Below the pieces are notes generated by a model that saw only the letters and a program-made list of their open reading frames with translations, was not told the origin of the DNA and ran no database searches. Below, one piece after another: positions 3,653 through 18,355 of a DNA stretch of 37,382 bases. Each line of letters begins with the position of its first letter. The first letter of the stretch is position 1. The DNA lies in contig JABIHA010000093.1 in NCBI GenBank assembly GCA_018649885.1, positions 1-37,382 of the forward strand. The letters are read 5' to 3'. Both the position numbers and the translations under genes were made by a program. Origin of the DNA: Bacteriovoracaceae bacterium (GTDB taxonomy: Bacteria; Bdellovibrionota; Bacteriovoracia; Bacteriovoracales; Bacteriovoracaceae).

Positions 3653-3890
3653 TCGCTGTATATTGGTCTTTACCAAGTAGATATCCAACAACTACAAGCT
3701 GGGCCAGCATTCCCAGTTGATCCTCATCTTCAATGCCGTAGAACTCTTCTATATGTTCAATAAATAATTCGATGGCATCATCTGAGATGTGGGATTCAAC
3801 AATTTTGATAATATCTTCTTGTTCAAGAGAGTTGAAGTGCTCCAAAAAGAGTTTAATTTTTTCAAGGTTTTCTGTTTCATTTATGTCCAT
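3606..3890 (-). CDS. Hypothetical acidic helical protein
   Basis: ORF track gives 3606..4058, but protein-like sequence begins at MDINETENLEK (ATG 3890). The longer version would overlap the sigma54 promoter. Confidence 0.6.
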   Translation of the reverse strand: MDINETENLEKIKLFLEHFNSLEQEDIIKIVESHISDDAIELFIEHIEEFYGIEDEDQLGMLAQLVVVGYLLGKDQYTAIMPDRDPSGGPKQVQ

Positions 3891-4052
3891 AACACCAAAT
3901 ACCATGTGACCAGGGAGACGTAAAATCATAGATGTATGAGGAAGTAGAAAAGATGCCAAATTGGGCCTGATCTTTTGACTCGCGGGGTCAATTATTCCCC
4001 TGCCAAAATGCCTGGAAAGACTATAACTACTTGAAAATATGTACTTTTGTTT

Positions 4053-4068
4053 TGGCACACGGCTTGCT
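4053..4068 (+). promoter_or_regulatory. Sigma54 (RpoN) -24/-12 promoter
   Basis: TGGCAC-ACGGC-TTGCT is an exact match to TGGCAC-N5-TTGCW, oriented toward ORF 4144. rpoN is present in the window. Confidence 0.8.
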
Positions 4069-4143
4069 TTTATAAGAGCAACCCGGCGGACCTTATGGAT
4101 GGGATTCGCTTTTAGCTTTTTATACAGGAAGTAGGAGAAAGGT

Positions 4144-4479
4144 ATGACACTAGGGCAATGTTTAGAAGAAATTAGACACGTTTATCTCGGTGGGAACCTT
4201 GAGAAAATGACCAAGGTTGGGATGTTTCTCATAAGGGATATCAAAAAAAATCATTACCCTGCTGGAGATTTTCCGCGCCATGGATGGCTAGTACGGATAT
4301 GTGACACAGGACCAAGTGTATCAAATGGGGATGTCAGCATCGGGGTCGATTTAAGTCCCAAGAACAAGCATAGGCCCATAGTTAATAAGCCAGCGCCTGA
4401 AGCAAAGGCATTCGATTCAAATTATTATCAAAAAGTTCTTCAGCTTCGGAAAGAAGCCTATCGAAGAGGACTACTCTAA
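4144..4479 (+). CDS. Hypothetical protein (111 aa), putatively sigma54-dependent
   Basis: Strong SD (AGGAG) before ATG; no recognisable domain. Confidence 0.6.
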   Translation: MTLGQCLEEIRHVYLGGNLEKMTKVGMFLIRDIKKNHYPAGDFPRHGWLVRICDTGPSVSNGDVSIGVDLSPKNKHRPIVNKPAPEAKAFDSNYYQKVLQLRKEAYRRGLL

Positions 4480-4546
4480 AAAACCCATATTATTTTATAT
4501 TTCCACGGATGGAACACGAGCTACAAGGATGTGGCTAGCGTATCAG

Positions 4547-4588
4547 TGCACGGAGGATCTTATGATCCTCCTGTGTCCTGTGCATTTT
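4547..4588 (+). terminator. Terminator-like hairpin
   Basis: GGAGGATC-TTAT-GATCCTCC (4552-4571) enclosed by TGCAC/GTGCA and followed by TTTT. Confidence 0.55.
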
Positions 4589-4626
4589 CCAAAATTGTGG
4601 TAAAATATTGAAAAGACAAGAGGTCT

Positions 4627-5337
4627 TTGGATTTAAACAGGACGTTTAATATGGGACTTGGCAGTGGAACTAGCGAAGCCGTTGGAAGTGATGCTCTAAA
4701 AAAGGCCATCGAAAGAAATAGGGCAAAGCGTGCAAAGCGCGACAAGGCTCCTTCAAGTTACAAAAAACAAACTGAGTTAAGCTTATTTTCTCCAAAATCT
4801 AAATCAAAACCTAAGTCGCGACCTAAAGCTAAATTACCACGCTCTCCACTTTCTTTTGATGAAGAAATGGCACCGGTGCCCAGAAAATCAAATCGTTCTT
4901 CTAGGCGCAGTAGACTTGCAGGGATTGAGGATATTGAATTTTCTGGTCCTCTAAGAAAACCGCCTAGAAAGGCACCTGCCTCTATTTCATATCTTGAAAA
5001 GCCAGCTCAAAAGCGAAAGCGAGCGGGTAAATCTGGTTCAAAACTTGAAAAAATATTTGTAAAGCTTGGCTGGGTAAGTTGTCTCGTTTTGGCCTTTCGG
5101 CTGATATTTGCGGGCGGGGGATTACTCGATTTCTACAATATGGATAAAGTTTTAGTTTCAAAGAGTAGGGGACTGGCCAGTATTAAAGAAGAAAATCAAA
5201 ATCTAAAAGATGAAATTATAAAAATACGGACAAATCGCAAGTATCAAAAGAAATTGGCCAGGACTCACTTGGGAGTTATTTCTTCTGAAGAGTACTTGGT
5301 GCTATTTGCAACTGACTCGTCTTTGAAGACCAAGTAA
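4627..5337 (+). CDS. Septum formation initiator (FtsB/DivIC) family protein with long basic N-terminal extension
   Basis: One TM, then GLLDFY, a coiled coil (EENQNLKDEI) and KKLARTHLGVISSEE, matching FtsB/DivIC ExxARxxLGxxxxxE. Extended -10 TGGTAAAAT lies upstream. Confidence 0.75.
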   Translation: MDLNRTFNMGLGSGTSEAVGSDALKKAIERNRAKRAKRDKAPSSYKKQTELSLFSPKSKSKPKSRPKAKLPRSPLSFDEEMAPVPRKSNRSSRRSRLAGIEDIEFSGPLRKPPRKAPASISYLEKPAQKRKRAGKSGSKLEKIFVKLGWVSCLVLAFRLIFAGGGLLDFYNMDKVLVSKSRGLASIKEENQNLKDEIIKIRTNRKYQKKLARTHLGVISSEEYLVLFATDSSLKTK

Positions 5338-14340: not shown

Positions 14341-15804
14341 ATGGCGATTAAGCTGAGCCAAGGTCTTAAGCAATTACAGAGTCTGACTATGACTCCACAG
14401 TTGCAGCAGGCAATTAAGCTTTTGACTTTAACCCATCTTGAAATGACTCAAGTTATCGCAGAAGAGATGACTGAGAATCCAATGCTAGAAGAAGCTAATA
14501 GTGAAATATCAAGAGATGAATTTTCAGACCAAAGCCAAGACAATTCAAATAAAGAAGCTAAATCAGAAAACTTTGATGCCCCAGATGTAATATCTGGAAA
14601 AGAAGATATTGATTGGAATAAATATATAGAAAATTTTAATTCAACTTCTTCTTCACCGCCTTCAATGGCCAAAAGAGATTCAGAAGATACTCCTAACTAT
14701 GAGAATATGGTCTCAAAGGGAATGAATCTTGCTGAGCATTTAGAGTGGCAGCTTAGGATGGAAAACCTTACAGAAGCCGAGTGGCAAGTTGCCTATAATA
14801 TAATTCACAATATTGATGATGATGGCTACCTTGAGGTTTCAATTGATGAAGTTATTGAGCTAACTGGTCATGATAGAGAAGACTCTCTTGAGCTTCTTAA
14901 TATGATTCAGCAACTTGATCCTGTGGGCTGTGGTTCGCGTGGCTTAGTTGAATGTCTTCTGATTCAGGCCAAAAATTTAGATGAGAGGATGCCACTTGTT
15001 GAACTTCTCATTACTGATCATTTACAAGATTTAAAAAATAAAGATCACGATAAAATTGCAAAAAAATTGGGACTAGATCTTTCACAAGTTAAAGATGCCG
15101 AACTCATCATGATGGAGTTTAATCCCAAGCCTGGTAGGCTCATTTCTCCAGAGGAAACCCATTATATTATTCCCGATATTTTTGTCAGATTTGTAGGCAA
15201 TGAATTATCAGTAGATGTTAATGATGACGGTGTACCCAATCTTCAAATATCAAATCTTTATAAAAGCTTACTTTCTAAAGGTAAGGCTGCAGCTGAGGGA
15301 GACAAAGAGGCCTCAGAGTATGTTCAAGACAAGCTAAGAGCGGCAATGTGGTTGATTAAATCTATTCACAATAGACAAAAAACAATTCTCAAAGTGGCCA
15401 AGGCGATAGTTAAATATCAGCCTGAGTTTTTTAGAAAGGGCCCATCAGTATTAAAGCCAATGATATTAAAAGATATTGCTTATGAAATCGGTATGCACGA
15501 GTCTACGGTTTCTAGGGTTACAACAAATAAGTATATGCACACACCAATCGGGACCTTTGAGCTCAAGTACTTTTTTAACGCGGGCATCGGCGGCGCAAAT
15601 GGTGGTGTGGATATTGCTGCAGAGTCACTAAAGCTTAAAATCAAACAATATGTGGATAATGAAAACTCTGGAAAGCCATTATCTGACCAAAAGATTGCAG
15701 ATTTGTTAAAAAGAGAAGATATTGTTGTGGCAAGAAGAACTATTGCCAAATATAGGGAAATCTTGGGTATACTACCTTCTTCTAAAAGAAAGAAGAAAGC
15801 TTAG
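14341..15804 (+). CDS. rpoN: RNA polymerase sigma-54 factor
   Basis: MTPQLQQAIKLL, HESTVSRVTTNKY, PLSDQKI and the RpoN box ARRTIAKYR. Confidence 0.98.
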   Translation: MAIKLSQGLKQLQSLTMTPQLQQAIKLLTLTHLEMTQVIAEEMTENPMLEEANSEISRDEFSDQSQDNSNKEAKSENFDAPDVISGKEDIDWNKYIENFNSTSSSPPSMAKRDSEDTPNYENMVSKGMNLAEHLEWQLRMENLTEAEWQVAYNIIHNIDDDGYLEVSIDEVIELTGHDREDSLELLNMIQQLDPVGCGSRGLVECLLIQAKNLDERMPLVELLITDHLQDLKNKDHDKIAKKLGLDLSQVKDAELIMMEFNPKPGRLISPEETHYIIPDIFVRFVGNELSVDVNDDGVPNLQISNLYKSLLSKGKAAAEGDKEASEYVQDKLRAAMWLIKSIHNRQKTILKVAKAIVKYQPEFFRKGPSVLKPMILKDIAYEIGMHESTVSRVTTNKYMHTPIGTFELKYFFNAGIGGANGGVDIAAESLKLKIKQYVDNENSGKPLSDQKIADLLKREDIVVARRTIAKYREILGILPSSKRKKKA

Positions 15805-18057: not shown

Positions 18058-18240
18058 GACTTAACCTTCCTGTGAGCGAAACCACTGTCGCCCTCAAATT
18101 TTACAAGATAGCGCAATTTGCCATAAGCCTCTTTGTAAACTCTATAGAGGGGTGTCAATATATTAGGCTCCTAAAATCAAAGGGTTATAGGGCATATACG
18201 TGATGTCATTGACTTATCTCTGCCCATTTTATAACACTGA

Positions 18241-18337
18241 ATTGTCGCTTAAAAATGTTAAGGGGGAATCCAGTGGAATTCTGGAACTGTCCCGCAACGG
18301 TAAGTAACTTAGTTACAAGTCCGAGCACCCTGACATT
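18241..18337 (+). promoter_or_regulatory. Cobalamin riboswitch
   Basis: AGGGGGAA-TCCAG-TGGAATT-CTGGA-ACTGTCCCGCAACGGTAA...AAGTCCGAGCACC contains the GGGAA, T-loop stem, CCCGCAACxGT and B12-box elements. It lies directly upstream of a TonB-dependent receptor. Boundaries approximate. Confidence 0.9.
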
Positions 18338-18355
18338 GTAGATTTCTCGAGGAAG

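Follow-up and report, generated by a model that had tools for sequence, protein, structure and literature searches.

Contig JABIHA010000093.1 of the Bacteriovoracaceae bacterium assembly GCA_018649885.1 was analysed over its whole length of 37,382 nucleotides (nt), which we call the window; it is contig C128 of a 5.45-Mb genome with 38% G+C, from a family whose marine members are predatory bacteria. Within positions 4053–5337 of its forward strand lie a sigma-54 (−24/−12) promoter, a gene for a conserved 111-amino-acid (aa) protein flanked on both sides by predicted RNA hairpins that present GGA in their loops, a terminator-like hairpin and an ftsB/divIC-like septum gene. A first-pass annotation, made from the letters alone, had described the unit as a sigma-54-driven transcript of about 510 nt carrying CsrA-type hairpins and as a candidate sponge or dual-function RNA. 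Here, we examine the locus and find that it probably gives rise to a sigma-54-driven messenger RNA (mRNA) of the small protein, the translation of which is gated, in the sense of repressed, by CsrA, a reading built on sequence, predicted folds and comparison with relatives. Among 15 listed sequencing runs, no RNA run contains the stretch; four DNA runs over 3950–4750 carry no listed differences from the window, and a single letter differs in one contig.

The promoter, TGGCAC-ACGGC-TTGCT at 4053–4068 (+), is an exact match to TGGCAC-N5-TTGCW, with GG at −24 and GC at −12, as the first-pass annotation had recognized. A control that varied the spacer shows the class to be strongly enriched in this genome: the N5 motif occurs 32 times in 5.45 Mb, against 2–13 times for spacers N2–N4 and N6–N9 and a rough expectation of about 3 from base composition, and most of the 32 matches lie a few tens of bases 5′ of a ribosome site and start codon. 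Because the N5 count is so far above that of the other spacers, most N5 matches should be functional. The gene for the cognate sigma factor, rpoN, is itself in the window at 15316–15795 (+) (PF04552, 205 bits), at a distance of about 11 kb; in two further genomes (G018 and G056) a single contig likewise carries both rpoN and the small gene, 12–18 kb apart. Promoter geometry places the start of transcription near 4080 and so predicts a 5′ leader of roughly 64 nt (4080–4143, +). The gap between promoter and start codon is 75 nt, with the Shine–Dalgarno sequence AGGAG at 4133–4137 and the ATG at 4144, from which 111 codons run to 4479.

The open reading frame (ORF) at 4144–4479 (+) is a real, conserved protein-coding gene and not the orphan that it had been taken for. 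Of 236 other Bacteriovoracaceae genomes, 6 encode homologues of its product, and 24 representative proteins among 1.84 billion match it at E ≤ 1e-10. Conservation covers the N-terminal 75 residues, in which Cys6, Pro44 and Trp48 are invariant, and AlphaFold2 models the protein with a mean predicted local distance difference test score of 88.8 as two helices and three strands, plus a disordered segment and a C-terminal helix. No family in Pfam, NCBIfam or PHROGs matches the protein, nor does any fold in the PDB (the best hits have E 1.2 in Foldseek and Z 4.5 in VIA). A kinship with HK97-gp10-like phage proteins, suggested by an Atlas score of 0.94, was dropped because neither Pfam nor PHROGs backs it; the pair shares 143 features, where 170 are typical of true kin. 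A class-wide search for homologues added nothing to the family-wide one, and scans of genome contigs and metagenomes for further relatives returned only known loci or the same organism. One further hit, L008 (E 0.00175), proved spurious as an orthologue, with stops and the wrong frame, and is left out of all counts.

The leader is unusually rich in GGA, with five in 64 nt, a number that only 0.13% of genome windows reach. Among 2,500 leaders sampled from this one genome with our own rough gene calls, 1.1% contain at least five GGA, and 16 reach the two GGA that this leader places in hairpin loops of its minimum-free-energy (MFE) fold. The upstream predicted CsrA site is the hairpin at 4085–4110 (+), which appears in every fold, full-length and leader-only, and exposes GGA 4097 in the loop UAUGGAU with an unpaired probability of 0.99. 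The downstream predicted sites, at 4123–4137 (+), comprise the mini-hairpin TAC-AGGAA-GTA (4123–4133), which has only three pairs and forms in the leader-only fold, and the Shine–Dalgarno sequence that follows it; the unpaired probabilities at these GGA sites are 0.75, for the mini-hairpin, and 0.66, and the ACAGGAAGU motif of the region is also found in flagellin leaders of the same genome. From GGA 4097 to GGA 4127 and GGA 4134 at the ribosome site the spacing is 30–37 nt. The leader thus combines a loop GGA with a GGA overlapping the Shine–Dalgarno sequence, within the 10–63 nt across which a CsrA dimer is described as bridging two sites (PMC7652899, which also gives the glgC model).

Across 4080–4590 as a whole there are 20 GGA, where 511-nt windows of the genome contain 6.4 on average (s.d. 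3.0) and 142 of 214,944 reach 20. This signal resides in the flanks of the gene and not in the coding sequence (CDS). The non-coding flanks hold 10 GGA in 175 nt, four of them in loops. The CDS also holds 10, where its amino acids and codon usage predict 6.3 ± 2.0 (P = 0.05), and the orthologous CDSs have no GGA enrichment. One of the hairpins noted within the CDS, GCCA-TGGA-TGGC at 4277–4288, does form, but it encodes a conserved His-Gly-Trp in which Gly and Trp vary little or not at all; L006 is the one orthologue that likewise has GGA as the codon of this Gly. The other, GTA-CGGA-TAT at 4291–4300, is weak and absent from the MFE fold. As the protein sequence accounts for most of the GGA of the CDS, and His-Gly-Trp for the first hairpin, we set both hairpins aside. 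The six A(N)GGA hairpins originally listed therefore reduce to four, in the leader and trailer, that are predicted and non-random, whereas the two in the CDS do not rise above chance.

Two of the four lie beyond the stop codon. The trailer hairpins TTCCA-CGGA-TGGAA (4501–4514, +) and AGCTACA-AGGA-TGTGGCT (4519–4536, +) are both predicted in the MFE fold; the first has an alternative long-range pairing in one local fold, and the second is present in all folds. The second is also the best match to the consensus of CsrA sites: CUACAAGGAUGU at 4521–4532 agrees at 11 of 12 positions, as had been counted, with RUACARGGAUGU, the consensus reported from SELEX (PMC7652899), and its loop motif, ACA(A)GGAUG, is identical to the core of the SELEX consensus. 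Hairpins of the form CA(N)GGATG with a stem of at least seven pairs number 16 in the genome, this one included, against a rough chance-pairing estimate of about 6. The 111-nt trailer holds five GGA, of which two are in MFE hairpin loops, a number reached by 2 of 1,997 sampled trailers; shuffles of the trailer that preserve its GGA put a mean of 0.18 in loops (P = 0.005). The density of loop GGA in both flanks thus exceeds its background, and in the trailer also the shuffles. The two trailer sites, GGA 4507 and GGA 4527, are 20 nt apart, and an AU-rich sequence, single-stranded, lies 5′ of their hairpins. Immediately downstream, the element at 4540–4588 (+) consists of a hairpin of −25.9 kcal/mol (4540–4583; inner stem GGAGGATC/GATCCTCC) followed by only four U at 4585–4588. 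Of the terminator-like closure that had been assigned to the unit, the stable hairpin stands, but the U tract is weak and the element was not listed by a terminator scan.

The genome encodes the machinery that such sites would need. The csrA gene, which the first-pass annotation did not see in the window, is at C57:29483–29638 (PF02599, 90.2 bits), and fliW is its neighbour. Several flagellin leaders carry, by eye, short A(N)GGA hairpins 5′ of a GGA-containing ribosome site, a pattern that is the expected classical FliW–CsrA–flagellin layout as far as sequence can tell. Such hairpins number one to three in each of the leaders at C73:36461, C35:4802, C134 and C57 (a minus-strand gene on C57), and sigma-28-like −10 boxes were seen by eye at three of eight flagellin genes (C94, the C57 minus-strand gene and C73:36461). 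Elsewhere, at C21:111596 (+), a sigma-28-like −10 box, GCCGATAA, immediately precedes an eight-pair hairpin, TGGTAACA-AGGA-TGTTACCA, that overlaps an ATG and is a strong candidate CsrA site. GacA/UvrY and fliW are described as anti-correlated (PMC7652899), and a GacA/UvrY-type promoter is not expected here because this genome has fliW. The CsrA of Bdellovibrio bacteriovorus is reported to repress the Bacillus subtilis hag leader (PMC13443453), and in Campylobacter jejuni CsrA is reported to repress the RpoN-dependent flaB and flgI (Dugar et al. 2016, PMC4894983). The GGA-loop trait is not general to sigma-54 transcripts, since 26 of the 32 sigma-54 leaders of this genome have no loop GGA; only the leader studied here and the one at C5:3572 have two. 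The latter, on the plus strand, follows the only other strict sigma-54 promoter with two loop GGA in the first 120 nt and precedes a 76-aa ORF.

Comparison with the six orthologous loci shows how far this arrangement extends. At three of them (L006, L007 and L022), a sigma-54-like motif lies 5′ of the small gene (TGGCAT-N5-TTGCT, TGGCCT-N5-TTGCT and TGGCAC-N5-ATGCT, respectively), and the leader presents GGA in hairpin loops, which in L006 include a perfect CAACCACA-AGGA-TGTGGTTG hairpin. The four sigma-54-type leaders, counting that of the window, are 51–143 nt long and cannot be aligned in sequence, and 11 of their 20 GGA are in MFE hairpin loops; shuffles place far fewer there (1.7 ± 1.2 when GGA are preserved, 1.0 ± 0.9 when dinucleotides are), and none of 200 reaches 11. 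Aligned leaders of L007 and L022 were considered as a source of covariation, but they are too diverged, with a 32-column gap, and seven apparently compensatory pairs were discounted. Among the relatives with the small gene, csrA was found in four of five and rpoN in all five. At the matching place, 30–65 nt 5′ of the small gene, L004, L005 and L021 have GGGAAT-N5-TTGA (TTTT in L021); this element has the −24/−12 geometry but A for the C at −12, and may represent either a sigma-54 site in decay or an element of another kind. Paired GGA hairpins 3′ of the stop codon occur in none of the six loci.

The neighbour of the small gene is conserved as well. The gene at 4651–5337 (+) matches Pfam DivIC with 31.3 bits (cut-off 28.9) and NCBIfam FtsB with 21.6 bits, below the cut-off, and its leader (4629–4653, +) comprises GGA 4629, GGA 4640 in the ribosome site AACAGGACG and the ATG at 4651. 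A long gene on the same strand lies 3′ of the small gene in all six loci with downstream data; its likeness to the window's ftsB/divIC-like gene was judged by eye, and the N termini in L005 and L006 share a KAIERN motif. An AACAGGA ribosome site is common to the gene in L005, L007, L021 and L022, and each of these four has one GGA hairpin 20–24 nt 5′ of it (for example, GTTTCGACA-AGGA-TGTTGAAAC in L021), whereas none is present in L004 or L006. Of six ftsB-like leaders, four contain one or more loop GGA, against 274 of 2,500 background leaders. This two-site layout suggests that in several genera CsrA may act on the septum gene as well. The corresponding leader in the window has no loop GGA in its MFE fold, and the trailer pair is 113–133 nt from the ftsB-like ribosome site with a strong hairpin between them; at this distance and with this obstacle, the pair cannot act on that site by simple bridging.

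The layout of loop GGA, the presence of csrA and fliW, the match to the SELEX core, the bridging spacings and the known CsrA targets together lead us to read the leader as probably CsrA-gated, which agrees with the earlier proposal for the ORF: the layout is canonical, the outer sites are 37 nt apart, and it recurs at the three sigma-54-type orthologous loci. Transcription would start near 4080 once an enhancer-binding activator fires. A CsrA dimer would then hold the 4097 loop together with the 4127 and 4134 sites and block the ribosome, as at glgC or hag, until FliW, or a decoy RNA encoded elsewhere, relieved the repression. The trailer pair, 4507 and 4527, could bind a further dimer 20 nt across, and would most likely affect the fate of the message or read-through into the ftsB/divIC-like gene. 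Like glgC of Escherichia coli and hag of B. subtilis, the window leader pairs a loop GGA with a Shine–Dalgarno GGA 30–37 nt away, and csrA is paired with fliW in this genome as in B. subtilis. Unlike them, the window gene encodes a small protein that is neither flagellin nor a glycogen enzyme, it has a sigma-54-type promoter, and its message carries a second pair of predicted sites after the stop codon. Also comparable are flaB and flgI as described for C. jejuni (PMC4894983), which likewise combine an organism with FliW and CsrA and a sigma-54-type message with leader sites, those of the window being predicted.

Several observations weigh against reading the message as CsrA-gated. The mini-hairpin at 4123–4133 is unstable between folds: in the full-length fold it is absent, and its AGGAAGU is paired with GCUUUUU. 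The fold of the whole transcript is unremarkable (z = −1.57). Under crude stem matching, 31% of all GGA in the genome lie in a loop closed by at least four pairs, against 10 of 20 here, and loosely defined pairs of GGA hairpins number 685 genome-wide; by this crude measure the signal is weak and does not discriminate. The backgrounds for leaders and trailers alike come from a single genome and rough gene calls, and the four sigma-54-type leaders amount to about three independent lineages, since L007 and L022 belong to one genus. At L004, L005 and L021 there is no sigma-54 motif, and the leaders show, apart from the ribosome site, either no loop GGA or a single weak GGGA. Finally, no inverted repeat that might be the site of an activator (enhancer-binding protein) was found in 3860–4070.

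On one alternative reading CsrA would have no role, and the GGA hairpins would be purine-rich, ribosome-site-like sequence and stabilizing stem-loops that look like CsrA sites by chance, or would serve another RNA-binding factor. The 31% of genome GGA that pass the crude hairpin test speak for this, as do the GGA of the CDS, which the protein sequence explains, and the ribosome sites of this genome, which are often AAGGA and so match the motif. Yet shuffles that keep the GGA count put far fewer of them in loops (the observed number is attained by 0 of 200), the leader and the trailer of a single small gene each rank within the genome's top 1%, relatives whose stem sequences differ again present GGA in loops, and the loop motif ACA(A)GGAUG is that of the SELEX core as reported (PMC7652899); we therefore consider the absence of any CsrA role improbable. 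A different alternative accepts CsrA and shifts its point of action, such that the trailer hairpins would control the ftsB/divIC-like gene: a leaky terminator would allow co-transcription, and CsrA bound between the genes would either uncouple the septum gene's translation or silence it, making a discoordinate operon. This proposal is favoured by the four relatives whose AACAGGA ribosome site has a GGA hairpin 20–24 nt away, by the frequency of loop GGA in the ftsB-like leaders (4 of 6, against 274 of 2,500), by the U tract of only 4 nt in an element unlisted by the terminator scan, and by the binding of CsrA between genes of operons, which is described for C. jejuni (PMC4894983). In the window, however, the pair is 113–133 nt from the ribosome site, beyond the 63-nt bridging range, with a strong hairpin intervening; the ftsB-like leader has no loop GGA in its MFE fold, and an extended −10 element seen by eye (TGGTAAAAT, 4598–4606) could give that gene a start of its own. 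We regard such control as unlikely, if worth keeping in view.

The proposal that first drew attention to the locus was that the message, or a 3′ fragment of it, may titrate CsrA under sigma-54 control; a fragment of about 90 nt (approximately 4495–4588) would be protected by the terminator hairpin. The trailer has features that a decoy would have, namely two good sites 20 nt apart beyond the stop codon and directly before a stable hairpin, an arrangement rare among trailers (two loop GGA in 2 of 1,997), and an AU-rich single-stranded stretch 5′ of them; like CsrB/CsrC and RsmX/Y/Z, the RNA shows A(N)GGA in hairpin loops, and its best site agrees with 11 of the 12 SELEX consensus positions. A precedent also comes from C. 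jejuni, which has both FliW and CsrA: its flaA mRNA is described as both a CsrA target and a CsrA titrator (PMC4894983). According to that account, however, flaA titrates through its leader and very high abundance, whereas the putative decoy part here is the 3′ trailer of a non-flagellar gene. Unlike CsrB/CsrC and RsmX/Y/Z, moreover, the window RNA is protein-coding, and the protein is conserved; it has about five sites in two clusters with no repeated unit, and a capacity of only two to three CsrA dimers. Nor is the trailer pair conserved, as L004 and L006 have no such hairpin and L005, L007, L021 and L022 have a single one that belongs to the leader of the next gene. The locus has no match in Rfam at the gathering score or at E ≤ 1 (elsewhere in the window, a cobalamin riboswitch, RF00174, lies at 18212–18348 (+) with 43.1 bits, above the gathering score), and blastn found no related copy of the RNA elsewhere in the genome. 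A sponge or dual-function role drawn from the trailer sites is thus unsupported, with the pair in no orthologue, no repeated unit and no Rfam match, and we hold titration by this message or its fragment to be quite unlikely.

The same genome also contains a far better candidate for a CsrA decoy than the window's RNA. At C83:63,690–63,940 (+), a tandem array of about five units of a GAGC-AGGA-AGCTC hairpin and an CCAAGGATGAA spacer has 10 GGA in 252 nt, of which five are in MFE hairpin loops; no long ORF spans the array, and its resemblance to RsmY scores weakly (18.3 bits, E 0.46). The two RNAs share hairpin motifs (GAGC-AGGA-AGCTC, CCAAGGATGA), and the flanks of the small gene are comparable to the array in number (10 GGA in 175 nt, four in loops), which favours a decoy function for them; but the window RNA is unique sequence around a conserved ORF, and the repeat array fits the role of a decoy far better. 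A sigma-54 promoter for the array (CGGCAA-N5-TTGCT at C83:63669–63684) was rejected, as it belongs to a relaxed class without spacer enrichment (120 against 78–130). A further region, at about C137:14,730–15,130 (+), lacks a long ORF and consists of G-rich direct repeats that contain many GGA. The fuller version of the decoy proposal, in which the leader is CsrA-gated and the trailer survives as a short 3′-derived RNA that soaks up CsrA when the sigma-54 activator fires, seems to us correspondingly doubtful. Were it true, the locus would supply a signal-controlled CsrA antagonist in a FliW-bearing predator, coupled to the adjoining septum gene, and any decoy function of the trailer would mean that CsrA has an RNA antagonist here although fliW is present, a setting in which none is expected. 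Among the titles and abstract openings listed by a literature search on CsrA, sigma-54 and sponges, none describes a sigma-54-driven CsrA decoy.

Read as the CsrA-gated message of a conserved small protein, the locus brings together a sigma-54 promoter and a leader controlled by CsrA, both of them familiar kinds of element; what would be new is a CsrA target in this clade. Among the papers listed by a literature search on CsrA and Bdellovibrio, none reports a CsrA target from such predators, and the locus is a concrete, testable and non-flagellar candidate CsrA target in the Bacteriovoracaceae. Here sigma-54 and, as predicted, CsrA would jointly control a conserved small protein, beside a septum gene that has CsrA-type leader sites in relatives. 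Between genera the predicted sites shift place, and the gene pair stays CsrA-marked, which would make it a small but clear case of regulatory turnover.

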